A stretch of 64,000 bases of DNA from Sphingomonas sp. (GTDB lineage Bacteria; Pseudomonadota; Alphaproteobacteria; Sphingomonadales; Sphingomonadaceae). The number at the start of each line of letters is the position of its first letter. The first letter of the stretch is position 1. The stretch lies in the NCBI RefSeq assembly GCF_036387535.1, contig NZ_DASVTO010000072.1:219-64218 (forward strand), given 5' to 3'. The notes below the pieces were generated by a model that saw only the letters and a list, made by a program, of their open reading frames with translations, made no database searches and was not told the origin of the DNA. Shown here piece after piece: positions 11,228 through 50,785 of this stretch. The position numbers and the translations under genes are program-made.

Positions 11228-12153
11228 GTCCGGAACCCCAGATAATAGATCAGCAGGATGTTGACGCCCAGCAGGACGACCGCAGTCGGCGCCTGCGCGC
11301 GGATCACCGCATTGCGATCCTGCAGATCGAGCAGCACCGCTGGCACCAGGTTGAAATTGGCCGCCATCGGGGTCAGCAACGTGCCGCAGAAGCCGGCCAG
11401 CATCCCCACCGCCGCGATCACCGCCGGATCGCCGCCCAGCGTGCGGACCAGCACCGGGACCCCGATCGCCGCGGTCATCACCGGAAATGCGGCGAAGGCG
11501 TTGCCCATCACGATCGTGAACCCCGCCATGCCCAGTCCGTAAGCCAGCACGGCAACGAACAGATTGCCGTCGGGGATCGCCCGCGCCGCCAGTCCGCCGA
11601 CGACCTCCCCCACCCCTGCCAGCGCGAAGACCGCGCCCAGCGCCGCCAGCATCTGCGGCAGCACCGCGGCCCAGCCGACGCCGTCCATCAACCGTCGCCC
11701 GGCATCGAACGGCGCGGCCACGCCCGGCCGCAGCCACGCATAACAGGCTGCCAATGCCACCAGCACGCCGGCGGACAGCGACACCAGCGTCACCTGCTTC
11801 GGATCGATCCAGTCGGGCTTCCACACCGTCCCCGCCAGCGCGACCAGCGGGATGAGCAGCGCGGGCAGGAACAACCGGTTGCCCGATGCCGACGCATCCA
11901 CCCCGCCATCATTCGCCTGCCCGGCCGCCGCCCGACCCACCGCACCGCTGCCTGCCAGCGCAACCAGCGCCAGCACCAGAACGCCATTCCCGACATCGCC
12001 CAGCCGGTCGCCGGCCAGGAAGCTGACCGCGATCAGGCCATAGAAGGCGGCGGTGCCCCTGCGCTTCGGATGGTCCGGGTCGCGCGCCGTCCGCCACCCG
12101 AATGCCGCGAACATCGCACCCGCGACGCCGTAGACGAAGTCCAGCCCGATCAT
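11224..12153 (-). CDS. DUF979-family membrane protein (putative 5-oxoproline transporter subunit)
   Basis: Multi-TM; LPQMLAALG, MGNAFAAF, CGTLLTPMAANFN. Confidence 0.85.
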   Translation of the reverse strand: MIGLDFVYGVAGAMFAAFGWRTARDPDHPKRRGTAAFYGLIAVSFLAGDRLGDVGNGVLVLALVALAGSGAVGRAAAGQANDGGVDASASGNRLFLPALLIPLVALAGTVWKPDWIDPKQVTLVSLSAGVLVALAACYAWLRPGVAAPFDAGRRLMDGVGWAAVLPQMLAALGAVFALAGVGEVVGGLAARAIPDGNLFVAVLAYGLGMAGFTIVMGNAFAAFPVMTAAIGVPVLVRTLGGDPAVIAAVGMLAGFCGTLLTPMAANFNLVPAVLLDLQDRNAVIRAQAPTAVVLLGVNILLIYYLGFRT

Positions 12154-12794
12154 CGCCGCCGGTCCAGCCACAGCAGCCGTGCGCCATGCACCAGCAGCGC
12201 CGCGATCGCGGTCGGAATCGCCCAGAGCGACAGATGGATGGGCGCGATGTCATAGCCATATTGCGCCATCGTCCCCTTGATCAGCAGGATCGATCCGATC
12301 GCGATGAAGATATCCTCGCCGAAGAACAGCCCGATATTGTCGGTCCCCGCGGCCAGCGCCTTCACACGGCTGCGCGCGGCCGCATCCATGCCCTGCATTT
12401 CGGCCGCGGCGTCCGCCATCGGTGCCACCAGCGGCCGCACCGTCTGCGCATGGCCCGCAAGCGACGTCAGCCCCAGCGCCGACGTGATCTGCCGGAACAG
12501 CAGATAGCCCAGCAGCAGCCGCCCGACCGTCGCCCCGCGCATCGCCGCCACCAGCCCGCGCGCCCGCGCCTGCAAGCCGTGCCGTTCCAGCACGCCGATC
12601 ACGGGCAACACGATATAGATGATCGTCACATAGCGCGTGTCGTTATACGCCTTGCCGAACGCGGCCAGGATCGCGACCGGGTCCAGCCCCGCCGCCAGCC
12701 CGGTCACCAGCGCCGCCGCCACAACGACAAGCAACGGATTGAAGCGCAAGAGAAATCCCAGCGCGACGACCAGGATACCCGACAGCACTAGCAT
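12150..12794 (-). CDS. DUF969-family membrane protein (putative 5-oxoproline transporter subunit)
   Basis: RFNPLLVV, LPVIGVLERHGL, GHAQTVRPLVAPM, NIGLFFGEDIF. Confidence 0.85.
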   Translation of the reverse strand: MLVLSGILVVALGFLLRFNPLLVVVAAALVTGLAAGLDPVAILAAFGKAYNDTRYVTIIYIVLPVIGVLERHGLQARARGLVAAMRGATVGRLLLGYLLFRQITSALGLTSLAGHAQTVRPLVAPMADAAAEMQGMDAAARSRVKALAAGTDNIGLFFGEDIFIAIGSILLIKGTMAQYGYDIAPIHLSLWAIPTAIAALLVHGARLLWLDRRR

Positions 12795-34292: not shown

Positions 34293-35468
34293 TCAGGCGG
34301 CGTTGGCGGCGACGCCGGCGGCGAGATCGGCGAAATAGCTGTCGGTGATGCGCTGGATCAGCGTCATCGATTCCAGCGGCGGCGTCGGGGTGTAATCGTA
34401 ATCGATCGTCACCTTGCCGGCCGACAGGCTCGTCGTCGGGTTCTTGGCGACGTCGAACCACGCCTCCCCGCCCAGGATCAGCCCGGCGGTGCGCAGCTGG
34501 CGCAGCTCCGCATTGATGATCTCGACGATGTCGCGCACCAGGCTCGGCCGCAGCGGCTTGTCGATCGCCCAGGTCATGCCGGCGGCGATCGTATCCTGCA
34601 GCACCTGGGCGGTGCGGGTCGCGCTTTCGAACGCGAACAGCGGGTCGGCCGAGCAGGTGCGCTGACCCCAGATGCGGAAGCCGCCGCCAGTGCGGACGAT
34701 GGTCGAGACCTGCGCGGCGTTGAGCAGGTTCGCCTCGCACGCCGGATCCTGGATATCGAACTGGATATCCTTGGTGGTGCCCAGCACGCCCAGGACCGGG
34801 ACATTGCTGATCGTCTTGTTCCAGCCCTGCTCGGCATCGATCGCGGCGCGCAGGCCCATCGCGCGGGCGGTGGCGAAACTGGTGGCGTTGGCGCCGGTGG
34901 CGGCATCGAACGCGATGAAATCGGGGGTGAGCAGCATCAGCTCGCGCGACGCGAAGCCGCCGCGGTAGGTGATGGCGGCGGCGATGTCGGCGCCGATCGC
35001 GGCGGCATAGACCATCGCGCGCAGCTTCTTCGCGATCACAGTCAGCGCGGTGGTGACCGCCGCCGTGTCGAGGCCAGGCGCGCCGAGGATGCGCGGTTTG
35101 ATGCCGAGCCGGCCCTCGGCCGCGAGCAGCGCCTGCATGCCCGTCTTTAGCCCTTGTGGCGTCGTGGTGCCGATGACGCTGGCGTTCGTGGCGGCGGCGT
35201 CTGCACCGGGGGCGACGCGGATCACGATCAGGACCGGCCGCGCCTGATCGGCGATGGCGCGGAGCGCGCCGTGGAGCGTGCCGGCGACACCGGCCTTCCC
35301 GATCGCGGCGTCCAGGTCGGTGATGAGGACGGGCGTGTCGAGCGGGAAGACGGTCGCATCGGCATCGGGCGCGGTCGCGAGCAGGCCGATGACGGCGGTG
35401 GCGACGGTGACCAGGCTGCGCTGGGCCGCGCTGGTCTCGGTAACGGAAATGCCGTGCGAATAGGCCAT
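34293..35468 (-). CDS. FI: Tail sheath protein FI
   Basis: MAYSHGISV, FPLDTPVL, KPRILGAPG, GWNKTISN, GFRIWGQRTCS, DYDYTPTPPLE. Confidence 0.95.
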   Translation of the reverse strand: MAYSHGISVTETSAAQRSLVTVATAVIGLLATAPDADATVFPLDTPVLITDLDAAIGKAGVAGTLHGALRAIADQARPVLIVIRVAPGADAAATNASVIGTTTPQGLKTGMQALLAAEGRLGIKPRILGAPGLDTAAVTTALTVIAKKLRAMVYAAAIGADIAAAITYRGGFASRELMLLTPDFIAFDAATGANATSFATARAMGLRAAIDAEQGWNKTISNVPVLGVLGTTKDIQFDIQDPACEANLLNAAQVSTIVRTGGGFRIWGQRTCSADPLFAFESATRTAQVLQDTIAAGMTWAIDKPLRPSLVRDIVEIINAELRQLRTAGLILGGEAWFDVAKNPTTSLSAGKVTIDYDYTPTPPLESMTLIQRITDSYFADLAAGVAANAA

Positions 35469-37749: not shown

Positions 37750-38580
37750 CTAATCGTTTGCCGCTTCCAACAGGATGCTCCTCTCGTTCGAGATCAGCAG
37801 CTCGGCGGCCTTGGTCGGCATGCCGGAACCAACCGTGTAGATGGTCGGCACCGGGACCATGCAGAAGCCGGCGAAGATCGTCCGCACGTCCGGATTGTCG
37901 TTGATCGACAACAGGAAGCCGCCCTTGATCGCGCGCAGCTGCGCCGCCAGGCGGGCGAAGTCGTCGGGTGCGAAGACCCCAGGGCCATAGTCCCCTTCGC
38001 ACTGCCAGTAGGGCGGATCGAGGTAGAAGAGCGCGCCGTCGCGGTCATATCGGCGAATGAAGTCGCCATAGGGCAGACGCTCGATCGTCACGCCCTGGAG
38101 CCGGTCATGCAGATCGGCGAGCATGGGTTCGAGCTTGCCGACGTCGAACCGCGCCGGGTTGCTCGCATCGACGCCGTAGGTCCGCCCGGCCACCCGCCCG
38201 CCGAACGCCAGCCGCTGCAAATACAGGAACCGGCAGGCGCGTTGCAGATCGGTCAGCCGTTCCGGATCCTGCCCGAGCAGGCGTTCAAATTCGGCGCGGC
38301 CGGCGACACGGAAGCGCAGCATGTCGATCATGTAAGGATAATGCTCGGCAAGACAGCGGAACAGGCCGGACACGTCACCGCTGATATCGTTGATCGCCTC
38401 GGCGCGCGGCCGGCGCGTGCGGCGCAGGAAGATGCCGCCCATGCCGACGAAGGGTTCGGCGTAGCTGGTGTGCGGCGTGCGATCGAGGATCGCGCAGATG
38501 CGCTTGGCGAGGTTGCGCTTGCCGCCGATATAGCCGGCGACGGGTCGCGTGGGGGCGACGGGGAAAAGGTCGATAGACAA
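37750..38580 (-). CDS. Orphan D12-class N6-adenine DNA methyltransferase
   Basis: YIGGKRNLA, YAEPFVGMGGI (motif I), YLDPPY (motif IV); TTG start. Confidence 0.92.
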   Translation of the reverse strand: MSIDLFPVAPTRPVAGYIGGKRNLAKRICAILDRTPHTSYAEPFVGMGGIFLRRTRRPRAEAINDISGDVSGLFRCLAEHYPYMIDMLRFRVAGRAEFERLLGQDPERLTDLQRACRFLYLQRLAFGGRVAGRTYGVDASNPARFDVGKLEPMLADLHDRLQGVTIERLPYGDFIRRYDRDGALFYLDPPYWQCEGDYGPGVFAPDDFARLAAQLRAIKGGFLLSINDNPDVRTIFAGFCMVPVPTIYTVGSGMPTKAAELLISNERSILLEAAND

Positions 38581-38674: not shown

Positions 38675-39280
38675 CTATTCGGGCCAGCCGTCCTCGACAT
38701 CGACCGGGGTGCCGGCCGCGATCCTATCTTTCAAGTCCCAGCTATGCGCCAGGATCGCGCGGCCCCAGCCGGCCATGCCGAGCAGCACGTCCAGCCCCTC
38801 CTGATAGGTGACGGTGATCGTGGCATTCGACGCGGTCCGGAAGCTGGCGTCTACGACGTCACCGAAGCCGGCCGCGACTGCGGCGGAATAGCTGATCTGA
38901 CTGGTGAGCCAGTTGGTCTTGTCGTCGACGTCGCGCAGCTGGAGACGGTGGCCCGCGAACGCCGGTGACGCCGGCGCATAGCCGCCCAGGAACACGCGCT
39001 GGGCGCGCGCATCGACCGCGTCGCGGCGCGCGGCCATGGCAGCGGCGGCACGGGCGGCGAGGATGTCGGCCGCGATCGGCGTCACCCGCCAGTCGCCATC
39101 CACCCAGGCGATCGTCTCGATCTCCGGATCGATCGCAGGCGCGGCCGGCGCTTCGACCCAGCCGCAGGCGACGCGGCCGTCCGGATTGTTGGCGAGGTCC
39201 GACCAGAGATTTTGATCGGCATCCTGGTCGAAATAGGGGAGCGGTTGCGGTTCGCCGCCGGCGCGCATCCAGAGCGTCAT
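38675..39280 (-). CDS. Tail fibre assembly-like / DUF4376-like protein
   Basis: Last gene of the fibre module; FRTASNATITVT...HSWDLKDRI. Confidence 0.55.
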   Translation of the reverse strand: MTLWMRAGGEPQPLPYFDQDADQNLWSDLANNPDGRVACGWVEAPAAPAIDPEIETIAWVDGDWRVTPIAADILAARAAAAMAARRDAVDARAQRVFLGGYAPASPAFAGHRLQLRDVDDKTNWLTSQISYSAAVAAGFGDVVDASFRTASNATITVTYQEGLDVLLGMAGWGRAILAHSWDLKDRIAAGTPVDVEDGWPE

Positions 39281-40828: not shown

Positions 40829-43081
40829 TTAAAGGGCGAAGTCTTTGCGCCAACCGAAGTGGAAGGTGCGGAGCGCGGAGTCCGTGGTCGCGTCGAACTG
40901 GATTTTGTACGACGGCACGGCAGCGCCGAGGTTAAAGACCCATGTCCGCTCGATCGAACCGTCGTCAGCGACGACGTCGGAGAAGGATGAGGGCGATACG
41001 AGCGTGGCGTAACCTGCACCGGTGCGCAGCTTCGCGGTGGCGGTGTGATGGCCCGCCTCAAAATATTCGAGCCGGCCGATCACGCGGATCTGCGCCGAGC
41101 CCGCGCCGGGCAGCAGCCGCGGCATCGAGACATGGGTGAGGCTGAGCCGCGGCCGCGAGACGCGGACGCGTGAGCCGGTGAGTTTTACCGCGGGCATGAC
41201 GTCGGGGGTGCCGGTCATGACCAGGCGGAGCGGCACGAGCGGCGGGATGTTGCCGCCGGCGCCCAGCACCGACTGCTCGGTCCGCGCCAGCGGCGTCCAG
41301 ATCCCGCCGACCTGGACCTCATAGGTGAGGTCGGTCGATTTCGGGATGATCGCCTCGGCCAGGATGTCGATCGCGGTCATGCCACCGGCGAGCGACAGCG
41401 GCGCCATGTCGATGACGGCCCGCGCCGCGGTGAACTTGGCCGCGTAGAGCGAGAAGCACAGATCGCGGGTGCCGTCCCCTTGCTGATAGGCGCCGTCGAG
41501 CACGTAGAAGAGCGTGCCCTGCGGGAAATTGGTCCCTTGCGTCGTCGCGATCCAGTGATCGGCGGCCGAGATCACGACCAGCGCATAGCGCTTGCCGCCT
41601 TCGAGATAGACCGGCTGGACCGGGATGACGGTCTCGGCATTGACGAGCAGGCTGGCGCGCGGGACGGTGGTGACCGAGATCACCTTGTCGAGCGCCGGCG
41701 CGCCGCGATCGGTTTCGCACAGCGCCAGCGTGATGCCGCCGTTCGCGGCCAGGCGGGTAAAGGTCAGGCCGACCGCGTCGAGCCAGAGATCATTGGCGTT
41801 GAGGAAGGTCTCGGCGACCTGCGCGCCGGGCACGGCATGGTTGACGGTGGTATAGTCCCAATAGGGTTCCTGATACACGTCTACCCACAGCCGGCGGACG
41901 CGTACCCAGCCATGCGCGGGGCCGTCCCAATCGACCTTGACGGTCTGGAACAGCTCGCCGTTGCGCTCGAAGGTCTCGGGGATGTAGCGATCGGTGACCG
42001 CACCCCACCAACCACTGTTGGTGCAGACGGTGAATTCCTCGCCGTAGCGCGTGCGGGTCCGCGACATCATGCGCTGAACCATCTGGTGGCTCTGGTAGCT
42101 ATAGGCGGCGATCTGGGTTTCGGCCTGGCGCGGGCCGACATTCATGCGCAGCTCGCGCGCATAGGCCGGGAACAGCACGTCGCCGGTGACCTTGGCGCGC
42201 GGGTTGAGCGCGTCGAAGACGGCGAGTTGGCTGTCCTTTACATCCTCGTCGGCGAAGCGGATGCCTTCCTCGATCTTCGCGCGGAAATTGGGATGGGCGA
42301 GATCGGATTCCTCCTTGTCCAGGAAGAAGTCCGCATCGCTGTCGGACGCCGCGACCGGGATGCCGGCCTGCTCCTCCAGCGTCGCCATGCGCGCGAGCAG
42401 CCGGCCGAAGGCGGCGGTGTTGACATTGTTCGCGACGCCGACCTTCAAGGTGGCGATGTCGGAGCCGAGCGCCACGATCTGAGGGCCGGCCTTGGCCTGG
42501 AACGCCTCGAGGCTGGCGGCGCGGGCGGCGACGTCGGCGACGCTGTCGAGGCGGTTGCCGGCGATCATGTCGACGCGGTCGACGCCGGTCGGGGTCAGCA
42601 CGACCCGCGCGACCGCCAGGACGCCGGCGTCGAGGACGGGATCGATCGGGTCGGGGCTCTCCTGGCCGGAGGCGACGTTGATGTTGCAGAGCCGCGCCAG
42701 CTCCATAGCGACGACGCGCGGTTCGGAGGCGCCGGTTTCCTCGTTGATCAGGAATTCGCGCGGACGCGCGTCGGTCTCGCTCTCCTGGCCGAAGATCACG
42801 ATCAGGACATGCTTCTTGGTCGCGATCGGTAGCGAGGTGGTGAAGTCCTTCACGAACGCGGCGTCGCGGGCGAAGACCTTGCCGGCCGAATAAAGCCGGC
42901 CAGGCTGGACGGTCACCTCGGTCGCGCTGCTGCGCGCGGCGGTGAAACCCGCATATTTGCGATCGGCGGTCACCGCGTCCGCGACGAGATCGTCCATCGA
43001 TCCCTGCGCGAAATCCTGCAGCTGATTATAGTCGGCGGGATCATTGTCCATGCCGTCACGGAAGATGACGCGGCTTTGCAT
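40829..43081 (-). CDS. 750-aa baseplate/tail protein at the gpH position
   Basis: Follows gpI with TAATG overlap and an AAAGG RBS; beta-rich; lacks the canonical P2 gpH N-terminus. Confidence 0.7.
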   Translation of the reverse strand: MQSRVIFRDGMDNDPADYNQLQDFAQGSMDDLVADAVTADRKYAGFTAARSSATEVTVQPGRLYSAGKVFARDAAFVKDFTTSLPIATKKHVLIVIFGQESETDARPREFLINEETGASEPRVVAMELARLCNINVASGQESPDPIDPVLDAGVLAVARVVLTPTGVDRVDMIAGNRLDSVADVAARAASLEAFQAKAGPQIVALGSDIATLKVGVANNVNTAAFGRLLARMATLEEQAGIPVAASDSDADFFLDKEESDLAHPNFRAKIEEGIRFADEDVKDSQLAVFDALNPRAKVTGDVLFPAYARELRMNVGPRQAETQIAAYSYQSHQMVQRMMSRTRTRYGEEFTVCTNSGWWGAVTDRYIPETFERNGELFQTVKVDWDGPAHGWVRVRRLWVDVYQEPYWDYTTVNHAVPGAQVAETFLNANDLWLDAVGLTFTRLAANGGITLALCETDRGAPALDKVISVTTVPRASLLVNAETVIPVQPVYLEGGKRYALVVISAADHWIATTQGTNFPQGTLFYVLDGAYQQGDGTRDLCFSLYAAKFTAARAVIDMAPLSLAGGMTAIDILAEAIIPKSTDLTYEVQVGGIWTPLARTEQSVLGAGGNIPPLVPLRLVMTGTPDVMPAVKLTGSRVRVSRPRLSLTHVSMPRLLPGAGSAQIRVIGRLEYFEAGHHTATAKLRTGAGYATLVSPSSFSDVVADDGSIERTWVFNLGAAVPSYKIQFDATTDSALRTFHFGWRKDFAL

Positions 43082-44274
43082 TATGCGGCCTTTCTGGTTT
43101 CGCCGAAGGTGAAGTCGCCGAAGCGGAGGCCCCCACCGAACTGGACCGGGCCGTGGACGGCCGTGTCGATCAGGATGGTGTCGCGGAACGCCTTGCTGAC
43201 GCGCACCGCCTCGATCGTTTGGTCGAGCCGGCCGAGATCGGCGGCAGCGCGGAAGCCGGCGCCGTGCCACTTGCCCGAGCGGCGCACCGGCCGCTGGAGC
43301 GGGACCGCGACCCGCAGTTCCGCGGTGAACGGCGCCATGCCGAAACGGCCGGCGCCGTGGAAGCTGCGCGTGTGGCGGCGTGCGCCCATCCGGTCGGGGG
43401 CGTGGAGCGCGACCCGGTCATAGACCAGGAACGGGGCATGGCTGGTGCGGAGGAAGCGGGCGCGGGCGCGCGGGCCGAAGAAGGAGCGCGCGGCGGGCGC
43501 GGTGCGCGGCTGTGCGACGCGGGTCGGGCGGACGTCGACCGGATCGAGCCCGGCCTCGACCGCGAAGGACCCGGCATCGTCGCCCAGGCGCAGCGTGACC
43601 ACACCCTTCGCGGCCTGGCTGCGCGTCAGATAGCCGCCGATCGCGCCCGCACCGTGCCAGCCACGGCGCGCGGTGCGCGCGATCAGCAGCCGGATCGCGG
43701 TCGCGTCGGGGGTCTCGTAGCGGATCGCGCGCTCGGCGCCCTGGTCATAGAAAGTGGCGCGGATGCCGGTGAGGTCGATGCCGCGGTTCGGGCGGAGATG
43801 GCCGCGGCCGTGGAAGTAGCGGCCGGCCGGGCCGGTGGCGAAGATGCGGTGGCTGGCGATGACGGTGCGGACGAAAGGATAGATCCGGACCTGCGGCAGG
43901 CCGTCGAGCCAGGCGGCGCGCTGCGCGTCGGTCATCGCCGCATAGAGGAAGCCGGTGGCGGGCGGGCGAACCGCGCGCAGCAGCTGCGATCCGGTCAGCG
44001 CGACATGCGCCTTGATCCCGGCGAGCGTGGTCTTGAGGCTGTGCAGCTTCAGCGCATTACGACAGACGTCGCGCTTCTGCGTTTCCGGCCAGCGATCGTC
44101 CCACAGATCGACCGACAGCCCCCAGGCGAGATGGCCGAGCAGGCCGGCCGGGCAGCTGTCCGGGTTCCAGACCGCCGCGATGCGGTCGGCGGGAAGCGCC
44201 AGGCGCTCGGCGATCGTCCCCTCGATCGCGGTCTCGAGCGCGGTGCAATTGGGCGGGAGCAGCGAGGCGGTCAT
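43081..44274 (-). CDS. I: gpI tail/baseplate protein with long C-terminal extension
   Basis: SLLPPNCTALE, WNPDSCPAGLLGHLAWGLSVDLWD..WPE..KR. Confidence 0.88.
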   Translation of the reverse strand: MTASLLPPNCTALETAIEGTIAERLALPADRIAAVWNPDSCPAGLLGHLAWGLSVDLWDDRWPETQKRDVCRNALKLHSLKTTLAGIKAHVALTGSQLLRAVRPPATGFLYAAMTDAQRAAWLDGLPQVRIYPFVRTVIASHRIFATGPAGRYFHGRGHLRPNRGIDLTGIRATFYDQGAERAIRYETPDATAIRLLIARTARRGWHGAGAIGGYLTRSQAAKGVVTLRLGDDAGSFAVEAGLDPVDVRPTRVAQPRTAPAARSFFGPRARARFLRTSHAPFLVYDRVALHAPDRMGARRHTRSFHGAGRFGMAPFTAELRVAVPLQRPVRRSGKWHGAGFRAAADLGRLDQTIEAVRVSKAFRDTILIDTAVHGPVQFGGGLRFGDFTFGETRKAA

Positions 44275-45205: not shown

Positions 45206-45228
45206 CTTGTAGAGTGGGTTTCTACAAG
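45206..45228. promoter_or_regulatory. Late-promoter activator site upstream of J
   Basis: CTTGTAGAGTGGGTTTCTACAAG. Confidence 0.8.
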
Positions 45229-45941
45229 GGCGTCTTCCGAGAGCTCATCTTATCCGGGGCCGGTAGAGCCTTGGACCGTCGTGGGATAGACCCTTTCATT
45301 TCCAGTGCGCTGCCTCCCTCGATGAACGCCTTGCGGAGGAACAGCTCCATGGCGCCGATCAGCTTTCTAAGCTGATCGGCATCTGGCGACCAACCACGAT
45401 GGGCGGCCGCATTCCCTGCATCAGTTACAACCTCAAGCTGCTCGAGCTCGTTCTGACCTATACGACCTGTCTCCAGCAATTTGTCGAGCTTCTTCCTAAA
45501 GCTGAGCTCAGTATCAATCTCAAGAAGTTCAGTGGCACGATCGAGAGCGGTTCGCAGCCCTATGGCAGCGAGGATGGCAGACCCGCCCTCGGAGGCTAAA
45601 TACATTTGTTCAAGAATGACTCTCAGCTGATGGTCAGTCGCTTCCAGCTGGGCAACCCACTCCGGCCGCTCCCGCGCCCCTGGATGTGGAAACGTCTGCA
45701 CGGTAGGCGTGTGGCAAGCATAAGATCGTTCTTCGGCATGATCATACTCATCCTCCCATTCCTCGCTATTAGTGGCGCTCTGATGGAAGAAGACGGTTTC
45801 GCATCCTCGGCATTCAAGAAGGCTGTAGACTGTTTCCTCCCAGAAAAAGTCCTGCTCAAAACGCTGAGTGGTGGAGCCGTGAATTTTGCAGGAGCGCTTG
45901 CCGTTGCAATTTGGGCAATGGGCGCTTGTCTTCTTCGGCAT
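45222..45941 (-). CDS. DUF4145 (HEPN-like) moron with N-terminal zinc ribbon
   Basis: CPNC...CRGC; AAIGLRTALD, FRKKLDKL, DAGNAAAH; lower GC. Confidence 0.8.
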   Translation of the reverse strand: MPKKTSAHCPNCNGKRSCKIHGSTTQRFEQDFFWEETVYSLLECRGCETVFFHQSATNSEEWEDEYDHAEERSYACHTPTVQTFPHPGARERPEWVAQLEATDHQLRVILEQMYLASEGGSAILAAIGLRTALDRATELLEIDTELSFRKKLDKLLETGRIGQNELEQLEVVTDAGNAAAHRGWSPDADQLRKLIGAMELFLRKAFIEGGSALEMKGSIPRRSKALPAPDKMSSRKTPL

Positions 45942-45967: not shown

Positions 45968-46435
45968 TTAGGCTGGCATTGATGCCAGCACCGCGTCCAG
46001 CATGATTTTTCGCTCGGTATCGGTCAGACCAAGAATCTCGCGCTTCGCATAGCGAACCTTGGCCTGACCCTTCGCCGGTGCATCCTCCCGGCCCTCTTGG
46101 TGGATACGCGCCACGCGCGCCGCCTCACCGCTGAAACCGATCCAGGCTTCCCGGTCGGTGGCGCCCGCCTGCAGATGCTTCGCCAGGCGAAGCCTGCGGA
46201 ACATTGCGGCGCGTTTGATCCGGCCCTTCCGGCGCAGCCGCCCCTTTGGCTGATCTTTGGCCTTGCGCGGGGCAAACGGTGTCCCGTCCGGCTGGATCTG
46301 GGCGGCGATCCGGGTGCGCTGACTCTTTGCGATCTCGCGCGCCACGGTGCGCAGCAGCGTGCGGCGCTCGGCCGGCGCGACACCCCGCAAGAGCGCGCCC
46401 GCCAGATCCTCGAGCTGGTCGAGGCCGTCGCTCAT
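45968..46435 (-). CDS. S: gpS virion morphogenesis / tail completion protein
   Basis: SQRTRIAAQIQPDGTPFAPRK, MFRRLR, ARIHQEG, YAKREILG. Confidence 0.92.
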   Translation of the reverse strand: MSDGLDQLEDLAGALLRGVAPAERRTLLRTVAREIAKSQRTRIAAQIQPDGTPFAPRKAKDQPKGRLRRKGRIKRAAMFRRLRLAKHLQAGATDREAWIGFSGEAARVARIHQEGREDAPAKGQAKVRYAKREILGLTDTERKIMLDAVLASMPA

Positions 46436-46941
46436 GGCGCGGGCGGCTGGAAGGCGGGATCGCGGGTTTCGGCGATCAATTCATCGCGCAGGAACAGTTG
46501 CCACAGATTTTGGCCGCAGACGCCGGGAAAGTGATCCGGCTGGGCCGCGTCGTCGTCGAGATGGACGACGTCATAGCCGACGCCGGCGGCGCGCGGGGTG
46601 ACCCGGACGCGTTCGGTCAGATCGATGTCGATTCTGACGTCCGCGGACTCTTCGTCCTGGATCTCGGTTTCGAAAGTGAAGGGCTGCTGATCCTCACGCT
46701 TGAGCAGATCGGGTTGCTGCTCGGCGATCCATGCGACGATCGGGACCATGACCGCGTCCACATTGCCGGCGAACGCAAGCAGCGTGACGGTCAGCGTGTA
46801 GCGATATTCGAACGACAGCGATGCTCCGGCGCGCGCGCCGATCGCGCCGCGCTCGACCGACATTTGCAGCCGATCGGGGTTGTCCGCCAGACCGGGGACA
46901 GCCTTGAGCAGCAGGCGGCGGAGGCCGTTTGGCTTATTCAT
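46432..46941 (-). CDS. R: gpR tail completion protein
   Basis: MNKPNGLR, SFEYRYTL, QQPDLL, IDLTERVRV. Confidence 0.92.
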   Translation of the reverse strand: MNKPNGLRRLLLKAVPGLADNPDRLQMSVERGAIGARAGASLSFEYRYTLTVTLLAFAGNVDAVMVPIVAWIAEQQPDLLKREDQQPFTFETEIQDEESADVRIDIDLTERVRVTPRAAGVGYDVVHLDDDAAQPDHFPGVCGQNLWQLFLRDELIAETRDPAFQPPAP

Positions 46942-47260
46942 CGGAGATCCTCACGCCATAGCCCCAAGCCCGGATCGTCTCGATCGTCAGGCCCTCGGGC
47001 AGACGTCGGCGCAGGTTGCAGATCGCGACCTTCAACTGGTCGGGGTTGGTATCTTCGCCGGTGCCGACCAGCGTCAGGCCGAGCGTCGACACATCGCCGC
47101 GTTGCGCCAGCAGCCCCAGCATTGCGATCTGGCGCGGCGACAGCTTTATCCTGACCCCCCGCCAATAGGCGGCGGGGGGATCGGACTGGACGGTGAGCGG
47201 ACCGCGACGATGGGTGCCGCCGCGCACCGCGCCGCATTCGGAGCAGATCGCGCAGCTCAT
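46934..47260 (-). CDS. Stand-alone OmpR/PhoB-type winged-helix protein
   Basis: IKLSPRQIAMLGLL...LKVAICNLRRRLPEGLTIETIRAWGY; N-terminal CAICSEC; no receiver domain. Confidence 0.75.
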   Translation of the reverse strand: MSCAICSECGAVRGGTHRRGPLTVQSDPPAAYWRGVRIKLSPRQIAMLGLLAQRGDVSTLGLTLVGTGEDTNPDQLKVAICNLRRRLPEGLTIETIRAWGYGVRISDE

Positions 47261-47694
47261 CCGGCATAGGCGGCAGCGCGGGCGATCAACCGTTGCTTGC
47301 CTGCGGCCCAGCCGGCCGAAGCGATCTTGGCCTGCACATGCTGTTCGGTCGCGTGCGTGCAGTCGATCGTCGAGACCGGTTCGATCGTGACGTCCACCGC
47401 ATGATCGAGCGCGACCTTCGCGTTGCCGGCGAGTCGACAGGTCCATGTTCCATTCACGTTGTCGACCGGCGCGATCCCATCGTTCAGCGTAATGAACTCG
47501 CGCGTTCCACCGGCCCCGCCGTCGATGACGTAGCTGTGCCCCAGCTCCGGTTTGAAGTCGAGGACGACGCTGGTCGGGGTGCCCGCCACCGTCGCGACCT
47601 TGAGCTTACCCTTCGCGCCCGCAGGAACCGGCCAGCGATTCTCGTTGGGGCTGGCGTTCTTGAGGGTCAGGTCATGGTCGAAGACCCCCTCCAT
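47257..47694 (-). CDS. C-terminal part of the SGNH domain, in frame with the upstream gene
   Basis: Same frame, 12 nt after the TAA; contains GVFDHD and DCTH (DxxH). Confidence 0.6.
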   Translation of the reverse strand: MEGVFDHDLTLKNASPNENRWPVPAGAKGKLKVATVAGTPTSVVLDFKPELGHSYVIDGGAGGTREFITLNDGIAPVDNVNGTWTCRLAGNAKVALDHAVDVTIEPVSTIDCTHATEQHVQAKIASAGWAAGKQRLIARAAAYAG

Positions 47695-47706: not shown

Positions 47707-50235
47707 TTAGACCCCGGCAGATCCGCGATACCATGCGATGACGGCCTGCCGATCGGTGGTCCCATTCGGCTCCATGAGTACCTGATCGGTGACCGTCGCG
47801 TATGAGCCGGTGGGCACAGGCCCGGCTGGGACGCTTGACGGCCCCTGCACGTAGAAGTCGGGCGTCACGCCAAACACCTGAATGTTCGGGTCTTTTGCGC
47901 GGAGGCGACCGATGCCGGTTTTTGCGTTCGCAATGAAGTTGGTGACGCCGTTGCGCCAATGCTGCAGGACCACCTGCCGGAACAGCCAGCGGTCGGTCTG
48001 GCCGACCAGAACGCCGAATTCCTCCCACGTCGACAGTGCGTCACGACCGTTGGTATTCGGTCCGAAGAACGCCCCCGGTCCCGCCCCGTAGCGGACGTTT
48101 CCGACCACTGGAACCGCACCGCCATTGGACGGGTCGGTGAGCAGATGGCGCAGCGGACCTTCGGACGAGCGTCCGTTCACGACCCGCCCATAATGTTCGA
48201 TGCTGTCTCCGGCCACGACCACCGATGGGCCAGAGCTGTCGTCGACCTGCGACCACATGCCGCACACCGGATAGGCCGAGATCGAGCCGACAGCAGCGGG
48301 GGAACCGGTGCCGGTATGGAATGCGACATCGCTGATCTTGGACGCGATCAGGCGGTTGCGGTGATTGAGGCGGCGACCGCCGATCGGAACCTGATCCCAG
48401 ACCCGGAGATGGAGATCGGCCGCCGGCAGCGCGCCGTGGCGGAATGCGAAAATGGCACCGGCCTCGAACACGAACGGGTTACCGGCCGCAATCGGCTGAC
48501 CATTGGCGGGGTGCAGCACCGGATAGACCGTGCTGGTCGCCGGATCGAGGATATCGACGCGGTGATAGGTATTCTGGCTGGTGCCGGTGGTCGACATCGC
48601 GTCACCATTGGTGCTGCCCGAGAAATAGCGATTACCGCCCAGCAACCAGCCGCCCGTGCAGGCGCGGGGATGGTTCAGAAGCGTGGTGCTTTGCGAGAAT
48701 TCGCGCTTCGTCCCGTTGGTTGCCGTGGCGCTGTCGGGGACCACCCCATAGGCGTCCAGCTCCATCGGCCAGTTGAGGCCGGTCGATGCAATCGCCATCC
48801 GCGCGGCAGCGGCGGTCACCACCACGCGAGCGGTTGCACCGGTAGCGCCGGCGGCGGCGACGGCATAGTCGGTCGTGCCGGCCGTCGACACGGTCAGGCC
48901 GATAACGCCCTTCCACCCGTTGGTCGCATCGCCGGCAACGACGACGCGGCCATCGGCCGGCGTGATCGTCGGGGTCACCCCGGCCGGAACGCCTGCGATG
49001 TTGAAGACCAGCGTCCCGGCCGGCGCGCCGGCGGTGAAGGCCAGCGGGCCGGTGATGACCAGCGTCGGCGTGACGGCCGGGGTCGCGATCGTCACGACAT
49101 GCGTGAACAGCGTGGCGTTGCCCGCCGCGTCGATGGCGCGCAGATTGGCGGTGAAGGTCGGCTTGCCGGCATTGTAGGCCTGCGCCGGCAGGGTCAACGT
49201 GGTCCCGGCGAGGCCGAACAGATCCGTGTCGGCGCCGGTCCGCTTCTCGAACGTCACCGCCTCATTGGCCGCAAGGGTGACGCTGTACGCCGTGGAGGCC
49301 GCGACCGTGGCGGTTGCAGCCGACGTGACCAGCGGCGCGATCTCGTCGAGATCCGTGACGTTCACCGTCACCGCGAAGTTGGTCGCATTGCCGGCGGCAT
49401 CGGTGGCGGTCAGGTTGCAGACGAAGGCGGTCTTGCCGCCTTCATAATCCTGCGCGGGCAGCGACAGGGTCGCGCCAGCGAGGGTGAACGATGCACTGTC
49501 GGCTCCCGTGCGCTTCGAGAAGGTCACCGCTTCGTCGGCGGTCAGCGTGATCGCCCAGCCGGTGTTTTCGACGACGGTGGCGGTCAGCGCGGAGGTAATG
49601 ACAGGCGGGCGCGTATCCACGACGGGCGCCGGGGCGGCGACCGTCACGACATGGGTGAACAGGGTGGCGTTGCCGGCGCCGTCGAGCGCGCGCAGGTTGA
49701 CGGTGAAGGTGACCTTGCCAGCATTATAGGTCTGCGCGGGCAGCGTCAGCGTGGTGCCGGCCAGCCCGAACAGGTCGCCATCCGCGCCGGTGCGCTTTTC
49801 GAAGGACACCGCCTCATTGGCGGTCAGCGTCACCGCATAGCCGGTCGCGGCTGCGATCGTCGCGGTCGGTGCCGACGTGATCAGCGGCGCAATTTCATCG
49901 ACGTCGGTCACGGTGACGGTCACCGCAAAGTTGGTGACGTTGCCGGCCGTGTCCATAGCCACGAGGTTGCAGACGAACGCGGTCTGCCCGCCCTCATAAT
50001 CCTGCGCCGGCAGCGACAGCGTCGCGCCCGCCAGCGTAAAGGCCGCGCTGTCTGCAGCGGTGCGCTTGACGAAGCTGACATTCTCGTTCGCCAGCAGCGT
50101 CATGCTCCACGCGGTGTTTTCGCGCGTGGTGGCGGTGAGCGGCGAGGTGATGATCGGCGCGACGCCGTCGATCGGTGCGACGATGGTGGCGCTGCCACCG
50201 ATTTCGATCACTTGGATCCCGTGCATATAGGCCAT
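47707..50235 (-). CDS. Cadherin-like repeat / SGNH-hydrolase virion protein candidate, interrupted by an in-frame TAA
   Basis: Sheath-like N-terminus MAYMHGIQVIE; four ~90-aa repeats (DYE, D.AGN, VTDxDE); VVVAGDS motif near 48205. Confidence 0.75.
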   Translation of the reverse strand: MAYMHGIQVIEIGGSATIVAPIDGVAPIITSPLTATTRENTAWSMTLLANENVSFVKRTAADSAAFTLAGATLSLPAQDYEGGQTAFVCNLVAMDTAGNVTNFAVTVTVTDVDEIAPLITSAPTATIAAATGYAVTLTANEAVSFEKRTGADGDLFGLAGTTLTLPAQTYNAGKVTFTVNLRALDGAGNATLFTHVVTVAAPAPVVDTRPPVITSALTATVVENTGWAITLTADEAVTFSKRTGADSASFTLAGATLSLPAQDYEGGKTAFVCNLTATDAAGNATNFAVTVNVTDLDEIAPLVTSAATATVAASTAYSVTLAANEAVTFEKRTGADTDLFGLAGTTLTLPAQAYNAGKPTFTANLRAIDAAGNATLFTHVVTIATPAVTPTLVITGPLAFTAGAPAGTLVFNIAGVPAGVTPTITPADGRVVVAGDATNGWKGVIGLTVSTAGTTDYAVAAAGATGATARVVVTAAAARMAIASTGLNWPMELDAYGVVPDSATATNGTKREFSQSTTLLNHPRACTGGWLLGGNRYFSGSTNGDAMSTTGTSQNTYHRVDILDPATSTVYPVLHPANGQPIAAGNPFVFEAGAIFAFRHGALPAADLHLRVWDQVPIGGRRLNHRNRLIASKISDVAFHTGTGSPAAVGSISAYPVCGMWSQVDDSSGPSVVVAGDSIEHYGRVVNGRSSEGPLRHLLTDPSNGGAVPVVGNVRYGAGPGAFFGPNTNGRDALSTWEEFGVLVGQTDRWLFRQVVLQHWRNGVTNFIANAKTGIGRLRAKDPNIQVFGVTPDFYVQGPSSVPAGPVPTGSYATVTDQVLMEPNGTTDRQAVIAWYRGSAGV
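49080..50163 (-). repeat. Four cadherin-like domains arranged A-B-A-B
   Basis: Repeats 1 and 3 share FTLAGATLSLPAQDYEGG.TAFVCNL; repeats 2 and 4 share DLFGLAGTTLTLPAQ.YNAGK.TFT.NLRA. Confidence 0.85.
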
Positions 50236-50239
50236 GGGT

Positions 50240-50785
50240 TCAGTCTTTCGCGGGAGAGAGGGTGACGCCGGCGCGGCCGAGCAGCGTTTCCAGCCGCGAC
50301 CAGGCGCCGAGCGCATCGAGCGCGGGGTTGAGCCAGTCGGTCAGGACGCAGTAGCGCCGGTCGGACGGGGGGCGATGGTGGCCGGCATGATGGGCGGGCG
50401 ACTGGAGGATGCCGATCTGCTGCAGCACGCGCGCCAGGCGCGGCGCGTGGGCGGGCGCATGCGTCCAGCCATGCACGGTCGACGATAGCGCCGCGCCGAT
50501 CGCCGCCGCCAGCAGCACGACGGACGGACCGAGCAGCAGCAGCCAGAGCGCGGCGCCGATCGCCGCCGTGATCCAGGTCGACAGGTTGCGGGTCAGCAGC
50601 GACCCGGCCAGGAAAGCCACCGGATCACGGTGATGGCGGCGATTCGGCGCGATCACGGTGCGGCCGAGCCACGGCCAGTCCTCGCGGCCGAGCCGATCCT
50701 CCCACCAGTGGACGATGCCGCCGAGCAGATCGGCGATGAGCCAGCCGACGAGCAGCTGACCGATGATCGCGAACAGGTCCATCAT
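50240..50785 (-). CDS. CarF/TMEM189/FAD4-family lipid desaturase
   Basis: ADLLGGIVHWWED, RRHHRDP, HGWTH, LQQIGILQSPAHHAGHH, YCVLTDWLNPALD. Confidence 0.85.
   Translation of the reverse strand: MMDLFAIIGQLLVGWLIADLLGGIVHWWEDRLGREDWPWLGRTVIAPNRRHHRDPVAFLAGSLLTRNLSTWITAAIGAALWLLLLGPSVVLLAAAIGAALSSTVHGWTHAPAHAPRLARVLQQIGILQSPAHHAGHHRPPSDRRYCVLTDWLNPALDALGAWSRLETLLGRAGVTLSPAKD

Follow-up and report, generated by a model that had tools for sequence, protein, structure and literature searches.

Why should a large adhesin-like protein of a P2-like prophage begin with the same residues as the tail sheath of that phage? The question arises from a 64,000-nucleotide stretch of Sphingomonas sp. DNA (assembly GCF_036387535.1, contig NZ_DASVTO010000072.1, positions 219 to 64,218, forward strand), here called the window, whose numbering is used throughout. 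A preliminary description, made from the sequence alone, noted that the N-terminus of a protein encoded here matches the sheath N-terminus at 8 of 11 positions before diverging into cadherin-like repeats. It proposed that the peptide is a docking tag that attaches an adhesin/enzyme fibre to vacant handshake sites of the sheath, as a modular way to decorate a tail. We find that the observation is confirmed, whereas the interpretation is supported only in part and needs correction in its details.

A sheath-like N-terminus on a cadherin-like protein

The 842-residue protein is encoded on the minus strand (47707-50235; ATG at 50235, stop 47707-47709) and starts MAYMHGIQVIE. The sheath protein FI (391 residues; 34293-35468, minus strand) is identified by PHROG 23 (E = 1.7e-118), by Pfam PF04984 and PF17482, and by its similarity to the pyocin sheath 3J9Q (E = 1.6e-64); it starts MAYSHGISVTE at 35468. 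BLASTP aligns residues 1-11 of one with residues 1-11 of the other, both from Met1, with 8 identities, and the similarity ends at residue 11. No PHROG or sheath Pfam family (PF04984, PF17482, PF22671) is matched by the protein.

The resemblance is more than chance. A profile HMM of the first 30 residues of unrelated sheaths from IMG/VR, searched against all 27,145 six-frame ORFs of 60 residues or more in the 3.07-Mb genome, gives E = 5e-8 for the sheath, 0.023 for this protein (aligned from its Met) and 1.7 for the next ORF. A second HMM, from P2-like sheath representatives, gives 0.0032, 0.026 and then 0.53. The sheath N-terminal arm, as a sequence element, follows the consensus [YF]-x-H-G-[IV]-x-[VI]-x-E within the first 12 residues in more than 130 sheaths, with His and Gly nearly invariant, and the protein conforms to it; His5 and Gly6, which are at least 90% conserved in 74 sheaths, are both kept. 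No mimic of the sheath C-terminal arm was found in the genome.

The copy, in codons 1-12 (50200-50235; motif MA-Y-x-H-G-I-x-V-x-E), is not a recent duplication of the 5' end of the sheath gene, as 4 of the 8 identical residues use different codons and the upstream DNA is unrelated. It is kept in three related proviruses, is invariant in 4 homologues, and persists in a relative of 37% identity in another genome. Codons 1-14 show 5 synonymous against 2 amino-acid variants, whereas the Gly/Ser/Ala/Pro-rich linker that follows (codons 13-25, 50161-50199) drifts rapidly, with 4 synonymous against 13 amino-acid variants in codons 15-28, indicating purifying selection on the tag. A start at another codon, which the preliminary description had named as a ground for rejection, is not indicated: in two homologous loci no other in-frame ATG, GTG or TTG exists upstream. 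The leader preceding the ATG (50236-50262), in which the stop of the upstream gene lies 4 nt before the start, is identical or nearly so in all four loci, whatever the upstream gene.

The family is very small. Word-based searches with residues 1-40, at near and shorter lengths, returned only the family itself, which comprises 4 proteins in 5.8 billion clusters, plus one 137-residue ORF at another locus. No phage record in INPHARED encodes a relative, and all 80 IMG/VR loci that match the DNA pattern for MAY-x-HG[IV]-x-V-x-E are sheath genes. Of 20 P2-like prophage regions from 400 Sphingomonadaceae genomes, only that of the genome denoted G545 has a non-sheath protein carrying the tag.

Domain organisation and gene position

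Following the linker are four cadherin-like β-sandwich repeats of about 90 residues (residues 26-115, 116-209, 210-299 and 300-~390; 49066-50160), arranged A-B-A-B. An AF2 model of residues 1-209 (pLDDT 65) has tandem cadherin EC domains as its best Foldseek matches (E about 1e-8), whereas its residues 1-24 have pLDDT below 50 and no fold. Pfam gathering scores are not reached, the only hits being Big_3_2 and Big_3_4, both below cut-off, although relatives carry precomputed PF00028 hits and homologues are annotated as cadherin domain proteins. An Ig-like domain comes next (residues ~391-477; 48805-49065). It is shared with other phage/GTA-type proteins that carry other N-termini, three of which (denoted P0009, P0017 and P0032) share this stretch only.

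The remainder of the ORF (47710-48804) comprises a β-sandwich and the N-terminal part of a predicted SGNH/GDSL-like esterase, with a block I G-D-S at residues 676-678 (48196-48213) that is invariant. An in-frame TAA (47707-47709) separates it from a 145-residue ORF in the same frame (47257-47694, with GAAGG just upstream of its ATG), which carries the rest of the esterase domain and a block V Asp-x-x-His (47353-47364). Asp111 and His114 of this ORF are invariant and align with the DGLH of the Pfam-positive GDSL domain of a protein denoted P0005. The Atlas look-alikes of the region are GDSL clusters (0.92, 200 features). However, Pfam finds nothing on this copy (PF13472, PF00657), the AF2 model of the C-terminal domain was unusable (pLDDT 37), hhalign against the P0005 esterase aligned only 18 columns, and a sequence search of the PDB gave nothing useful. 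Relatives read through as one protein of 977-979 residues; in this genome the predicted esterase is cut before its putative catalytic Asp/His, which could mean that the gene is dispensable or decaying.

The gene does not occupy the position of a P2 gpH-type tail fibre, which lies directly after gpI and carries an N-terminal adaptor that binds the gpI C-terminus; that slot is held by an 813-residue phrog_17470 protein. Instead it is an insert between the lysis genes (spanin) and a desaturase-like gene on one side and, on the other, the tail terminator gpR (169 residues; 46432-46941, minus strand; PF06891, E = 6e-44; PHROG 65), which is followed by a gpS-like tail completion protein (45968-46435, minus strand; PF05069, E = 7.6e-28). 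It sits in the late operon and has the same slot in three proviruses, no promoter- or terminator-like site lies on its strand, and its GC content matches that of the phage. Linkage to the upstream desaturase-like gene can be rejected, as this is absent in 2 of the 3 related proviruses. The gene is the least conserved of the block (60-63% against 80-92%) and swaps its C-terminal enzyme module, as host-recognition proteins do.

A modelled docking mode and a proposed site at the neck

In contractile tails the sheath N-terminal arm forms the outer, fourth strand (S4) of a four-stranded "handshake" or hinge sheet, in which two strands come from the subunit below, one from the C-arm of a subunit above, and one from the N-arm of its neighbour. 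A complex model of sheath residues 25-391 with residues 1-40 of the protein gave an ipSAE of 0.71 (0.69-0.72), compared with 0.00 for the best control; this mark was reached by 58 of 80 solved complexes and by 2 of 110 mismatched pairs. The runs share at least 90% of contacts, and partner pLDDT is at least 54. The modelled interface is formed by residues 2-14, with residues 6-10 in parallel register with sheath residues 366-372 (contacts 7:367, 8:368 and 10:370), within a C-arm strand (residues 363-380; 34329-34382) whose residues 366-375 pair with the tag. The sheath's own N-arm (35433-35468) would sit in this way, and the geometry is that described for the P2 N-arm (Gly7-Val10, parallel to the C-arm; preprint 10.64898/2026.09.14.750843) and for XM1. 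The score may nevertheless come from the model's memory of solved sheath handshakes, as the pyocin sheath 3J9Q is a close homologue. Moreover, the model used the sheath's own C-arm folded back in cis rather than a gpR strand, and therefore bears on the N-arm position and not on the neck itself; a class-level search for gpR returned almost nothing, and gpR has no sequence relative in the PDB.

Published structures suggest where such a position could be vacant. Terminators normally give a single strand to the top hinge sheet, as in P2 (gpR E142-I145), Milano, pyocin and XM1, and as stated in PMC11972413, so that usually only one of the two strand slots on the top sheath ring is filled. The literature indicates a free strand slot only on this head-proximal ring, although the P2 preprint does not state that the fourth-strand slot is empty, and in phiTE the terminator fills all slots.

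We propose, with a probability of about 0.5, that the gene encodes an accessory virion protein, with a 12-residue tag, a flexible linker, a stalk of four cadherin-like repeats plus one Ig-like domain, and a distal SGNH-type esterase. On the head-proximal sheath ring no further sheath ring supplies the C-arm and N-arm strands. In this view gpR would supply the S3 strand in place of the C-arm there, and the tag would fill the open N-arm slot, pairing with the gpR strand. Up to six monomeric whiskers would then hang from the neck, and could bind only after the tail is terminated. Their likely role would be to bind and deacetylate surface polysaccharide of the sphingomonad host. The mimicry, its conservation, the gene position and, apart from the predicted esterase, the domain make-up are shown by the analysis, and docking in the N-arm position is modelled; presence in virions, binding itself, the neck site, the copy number, the order of assembly and the substrate are inferred, without proteomic or structural data for this phage. 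The preliminary description is thus supported in silico as regards a conserved, selected mimic of the sheath arm, but the gene is not a tail fibre in the gpH slot, the likely site is six slots at the neck rather than a general decoration of the sheath, and the predicted esterase is interrupted here.

Strand donation into the hinge sheet is known for core tail parts, namely sheath, initiator and terminator. If an accessory adhesin uses the same device, this would explain how some simple myophages carry extra appendages without a dedicated adaptor protein, would give annotators a short signature for finding them, and would offer a 12-residue tag for loading proteins onto contractile tails or tailocins at a defined site and copy number. 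It also bears on host recognition in sphingomonads, which lack LPS and are coated with acetylated polysaccharides. A broader possibility, which we hold only tentatively and consider less likely than not, is that the copied arm is a general, portable handshake tag. Unrelated myophage lineages (P2-like prophages of sphingomonads; phiTE/PVP-SE1-type phages) would use it to clip accessory fibres or enzymes onto the slot that opens once the terminator has bound, giving a self-timed, six-copy loading site that could also carry foreign cargo.

Alternative readings and related systems

The strongest alternative, although unlikely, is that the protein is not a virion component but cargo, either a moron-like adhesin/esterase made late and released at lysis or a lysogenic-conversion factor. 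Its N-terminus would then be a relic of an old recombination with a sheath gene start, kept for translation initiation or stability rather than for docking. Consistent with this, no PHROG or Pfam structural family matches, the insert lies where cultured P2-like phages have nothing between spanin and gpR and is next to another cargo-like gene (PF10520), the enzyme is split by a stop codon, and in G545 the related ORF sits in a moron-rich region next to a signal-peptide esterase. Against it, the tag is conserved through synonymous changes while the adjacent linker drifts, the residues kept are those invariant in the sheath family, the tag persists at 37% overall identity, there is no signal peptide, promoter or terminator of its own, the GC matches the phage, and the modelled docking scores above its controls.

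More doubtful is that the tag binds the handshake sheet elsewhere or for another purpose, displacing sheath N-arms along the trunk or at the baseplate ring (a "hairy" tail), or capping or modulating sheath polymerisation or contraction. The model is compatible with a trunk-type site built with a sheath C-arm, and in phiTE the first-ring sheath N-arms are displaced from their slot, so such slots can be remodelled. Along the trunk, however, every slot is filled by a tethered sheath arm at very high local concentration, at the baseplate gpW receives both arms of ring 1, and a large adhesin/esterase body is not expected of an assembly regulator. Coincidence between two short N-termini is suggested only by the unanchored pairwise BLASTP (E = 0.094) and the 11-12 residue length of the match, and is disfavoured by both profile searches of the whole genome, which pick out only the sheath and this protein, by the Met1 anchoring and the conservation in all relatives.

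We found this mode of attachment described in no paper, but its elements have parallels. Closest are the C-terminal strands that tail terminators insert into the top sheath ring (P2 gpR E142-I145, the R-pyocin collar, Milano gp18, XM1 gp5 and phiTE pTE221), in which a non-sheath protein likewise imitates a sheath arm and completes the hinge sheet by β-strand augmentation at the head end of the tail. Those proteins imitate the C-arm (strand 3) with a C-terminal tail and are core tail parts, whereas here the N-arm (strand 4) is imitated, at an N-terminus, by a large predicted accessory adhesin/enzyme. The sheath initiator gpW / T4 gp25 / TssE takes part in the same sheet at the other end of the sheath, but imitates the acceptor hairpin rather than a donor arm, and there is no homology.

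An independent parallel is seen in phiTE_215 (1099 residues, annotated as a virion structural protein), considered here with the PVP-SE1-type long fibres of Vequintavirinae, which shares 10 of its first 15 residues with the phiTE sheath. The arm is of a different type (M-A-x-Y-x-D-K-V-V), the phage lineage and the body differ, and the published phiTE structure leaves no free slot and does not mention this protein, so that the fibre there has no known socket. The XM1 gp40 collar spikes (839 residues), T4 wac whiskers and Bas63 collar/whiskers are accessory, host-sensing or stabilising appendages at the head-tail junction of myophages, and XM1 gp40 touches the terminator. They anchor through folded N-terminal domains, coiled coils or "rope" extensions on adaptor, head-completion or terminator proteins, most are trimers or dimers, and no sheath-arm mimicry is described for them. 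Finally, Ig-like or cadherin-like decoration proteins and SGNH esterase tailspikes, such as T4 Hoc and G7C gp63.1, offer a string of Ig-type domains for weak carbohydrate adhesion with a deacetylating enzyme at the tip, but attach to capsid hexamers or to the baseplate rather than to the sheath.

Similarity to the tail sheath and gene context

The protein is encoded on the minus strand by an ORF with its ATG at 50235 and its stop at 47707-47709, and comprises 842 residues beginning MAYMHGIQVIE. The only other place in the window with the pattern Y-x-H-G-[IV]-x-V-x-E is at 35462, the start of a 391-aa protein (34293-35468) that is the tail sheath, as identified by PHROG 23 (E=1.7e-118), by Pfam families PF04984, PF17482 and PF22671, and by similarity to the pyocin sheath 3J9Q (E=1.6e-64). 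BLASTP aligns residues 1-11 of the two proteins at 8/11 identity and finds nothing else. The preliminary description, in which a cadherin-repeat protein was said to begin with a copy of the sheath N-terminal arm, is correct as written.

The window carries a P2-like prophage on its minus strand, in a Sphingomonadaceae genome in which a host gene is at most 76% identical to Sphingomonas/Allosphingosinicella. The gene order is gpL, gpX, holin, amidase and the Rz/Rz1 spanins; a 181-aa PF10520 lipid-desaturase-like membrane protein; the gene described here, followed by a 145-aa ORF; a small zinc-ribbon/winged-helix ORF; gpR (PF06891) and gpS (PF05069); a low-GC DUF4145 gene; gpJ, a long gpI and an 813-aa phrog_17470 protein; and then gpV, sheath, tube and tape measure. 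The protein is therefore not in the gpH tail-fibre slot but is an insert at the spanin/gpR junction, where cultured P2-like phages have nothing. It has no promoter- or terminator-like site on its strand, and its GC content is the same as that of the phage.

The desaturase-like protein (50240-50785, minus strand; PF10520, E=8e-37) lies inside the late operon and, in a sphingolipid-coated host, is a candidate lysogenic-conversion or receptor-modifying gene. The small ORF of about 108 aa between the 145-aa ORF and gpR (46934-47260, minus strand) has a Cys-rich zinc-ribbon start and a winged-helix-like C-terminus, is conserved at 81-90% in all three related proviruses, and has no counterpart there in P2. 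The DUF4145 gene (45222-45941, minus strand; 56% GC), which has an N-terminal zinc ribbon, is inserted between gpS and gpJ; tblastn found no match to it in the three related loci, so it looks like a true moron or a defence-type insert. The gpI protein is 397 aa long, against about 176 in P2, and is followed by the 813-aa phrog_17470 protein, which is 86-91% conserved among the relatives and is probably the real tail fibre, with an extended gpI tether (43081-44274 and 40829-43270, minus strand). A D12-class adenine methyltransferase and a DUF4376 protein (37750-38580 and 38675-39280, minus strand) lie in the variable region between the fibre genes and gpV.

The motif MAY-x-HG[IV]-x-V-x-E proves to be a generic sheath N-terminus, since all 80 IMG/VR loci returned for the back-translated pattern are sheath genes, of several subfamilies. 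An HMM built from their first 30 residues was searched against every six-frame ORF of 60 aa or more in the host genome (27,145 ORFs); the sheath scored E=5e-8 and the present protein E=0.023, with the alignment starting at its Met, whereas the next ORF scored 1.7. A second HMM, built from 71 P2-like sheath representatives that excluded close relatives, gave 0.0032, 0.026 and then 0.53. His5 and Gly6, both kept here, are at least 90% conserved across 74 sheaths, and the tag is closer to the P2-type consensus (8 of 10 to Y-H-H-G-V-Q-V-V-E-I) than to its own sheath.

Conservation of the tag

The tag is not a recent copy. At the DNA level 4 of the 8 identical residues use different codons, and the upstream regions are unrelated. 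Only three close homologues (P0003, P0004 and P0005) were found in 5.8 billion protein clusters, all from IMG/VR proviruses and all starting with the same tag. All are located in the same slot before the winged-helix ORF and gpR, although the desaturase-like gene is present in only one of the three proviruses and missing in two. In one relative, provirus IMGVR_UViG_3300028585_000515, the sheath appears to start with TTG instead of ATG, its arm sequence being otherwise unchanged.

Across the four genes the pattern of change differs by segment and indicates selection on the tag. Codons 1-14 show 5 synonymous against 2 conservative amino-acid variants, whereas the linker codons 15-28 show 4 against 13 and codons 29-120 show 45 against 22. 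In two loci no other in-frame start codon exists upstream.

A fifth, distant relative was found by scanning P2-like prophages of 400 Sphingomonadaceae genomes. It is a 137-aa ORF in one of these genomes, G545 (L265:3918-4328, minus strand), with 37% identity (E=4e-22), and consists only of the sheath-arm tag, a linker and one cadherin-like domain. It starts M-A-G-F-V-H-G-I-R-I-V-E in the same register, and lies in the moron-rich stretch before gpV and the sheath, which in that phage starts M-A-D-F-H-G-I-K. Within the next ∼2.6 kb, about 570 nt downstream, is an SGNH esterase of 600-plus aa with its own signal peptide. That homologues might lack the motif or start elsewhere had been set beforehand as a ground for rejecting the idea, and this is not what is seen.

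Predicted docking and domain organisation

In P2 the sheet that links successive sheath rings has four strands. Two come from the acceptor (sheath, or gpW at the baseplate), one from the C-terminal arm of one subunit of the next ring, and the last, parallel to that one, from the N-terminus (Gly7-Val10) of its neighbour (preprint 10.64898/2026.09.14.750843); XM1 shows the same arrangement. The arms point towards the baseplate, so that acceptors without sheath partners exist only on the head-proximal ring, where the terminator inserts a C-terminal strand, as in P2 (gpR E142-I145), Milano and R-pyocin. Terminators are stated generally to contribute a single strand, whereas that of phiTE contributes three (PMC11972413). 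We therefore infer, although no paper that we read says so explicitly for P2, that in P2-like tails the fourth-strand slot on the top ring is usually unfilled.

To examine whether the tag could occupy the position of a sheath arm, the sheath without its own N-arm (residues 25-391, alignment of 74 sequences) was folded with residues 1-40 of the protein (alignment of 4). The complex scored ipSAE 0.71 (runs 0.69, 0.71 and 0.72), against 0.00 for the best of three controls. That mark was reached by 58 of 80 solved complexes and 2 of 110 mismatched pairs, counts that hold only roughly here because our own alignments were used. The runs agree in at least 90% of contacts, and partner pLDDT is at least 54. 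Residues 2-14 touch sheath residues 366-375, the C-arm strand, in parallel register (7 with 367, 8 with 368, 10 with 370), together with residues 221, 239-251 and 267-268. This is the position of a sheath N-arm. The result may, however, be driven by the memory of solved sheath handshakes, pyocin PA0622 being a close homologue, and the modelled C-arm is the sheath's own, folded back in cis, in a complex that did not include gpR. The model shows compatibility, not binding.

Residues 1-24 are predicted to be unstructured. Residues 26-390 form four ∼90-aa repeats, whose model matches tandem cadherin EC domains, and are followed by an Ig-like domain shared with other phage or GTA-type proteins. The C-terminal part resembles SGNH/GDSL esterases (Atlas 0.92, 200 features), with an invariant G-D-S, whereas the homologue P0005 carries a different, Pfam-positive GDSL module on the same tag and two repeats. 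In this genome an in-frame TAA (47707-47709) ends the ORF and splits the SGNH-like esterase between block I-III and block V. The downstream 145-aa ORF (47257-47694, minus strand), which has its own GAAGG-ATG, holds the block V Asp-x-x-His, aligning with the DGLH of P0005; relatives encode one protein of 977-979 aa. The esterase is thus either split into two polypeptides or inactivated here, and may be a two-piece enzyme or a fresh pseudogene.

Proposed attachment and comparison with known systems

We propose that the tag fills the fourth-strand slot of the top hinge sheet, next to the gpR strand, giving up to six monomeric whiskers of roughly 25-30 nm at the neck. Strand 4 is an edge strand that leans on strand 3, so the site would exist only after gpR has bound, and this would prevent the tag from poisoning sheath growth. 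The distal domains would bind and deacetylate surface polysaccharide. The resemblance to the sheath arm, its conservation and the position of the gene are established from the sequences, and the docking is supported by a model only, whereas the neck site, the number of whiskers, the order of assembly and the binding and enzymatic functions are all inference, for which there is no experimental support as yet. We place the probability of this reading at about 0.5. The suggestion in the preliminary description, that the peptide is a docking tag attaching an adhesin/enzyme fibre to vacant handshake sites of the sheath, is thus partly supported.

The alternative that the protein is cargo with a fossil N-terminus is less likely but survives best among the others. 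Binding to the sheath elsewhere, or for regulation, is more doubtful still, and a chance resemblance can be all but dismissed.

The nearest known counterparts are the terminator C-terminal strands and the sheath initiator, which take part in the same sheet, and neck appendages such as XM1 gp40, T4 wac and the Bas63 whiskers, which use other anchors. Strand augmentation of the sheath hinge sheet is already known, but literature searches found no description of a fibre anchored by a copy of the sheath N-arm. A parallel is seen in phage phiTE (JQ015307; L155:4386-7685 and 11239-12660), in which phiTE_215 (1099 aa, annotated 'virion structural protein') and the sheath phiTE_222 share 10 of their first 15 residues, with M-A-x-Y-x-D-K-V-V-x-V-x-V common to both N-termini. 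The phiTE structure leaves no free slot, however, and the 2025 paper describing it (PMC11972413) does not mention phiTE_215. Compared with phiTE, the present protein belongs to an independent lineage, with a different arm motif and a different body.
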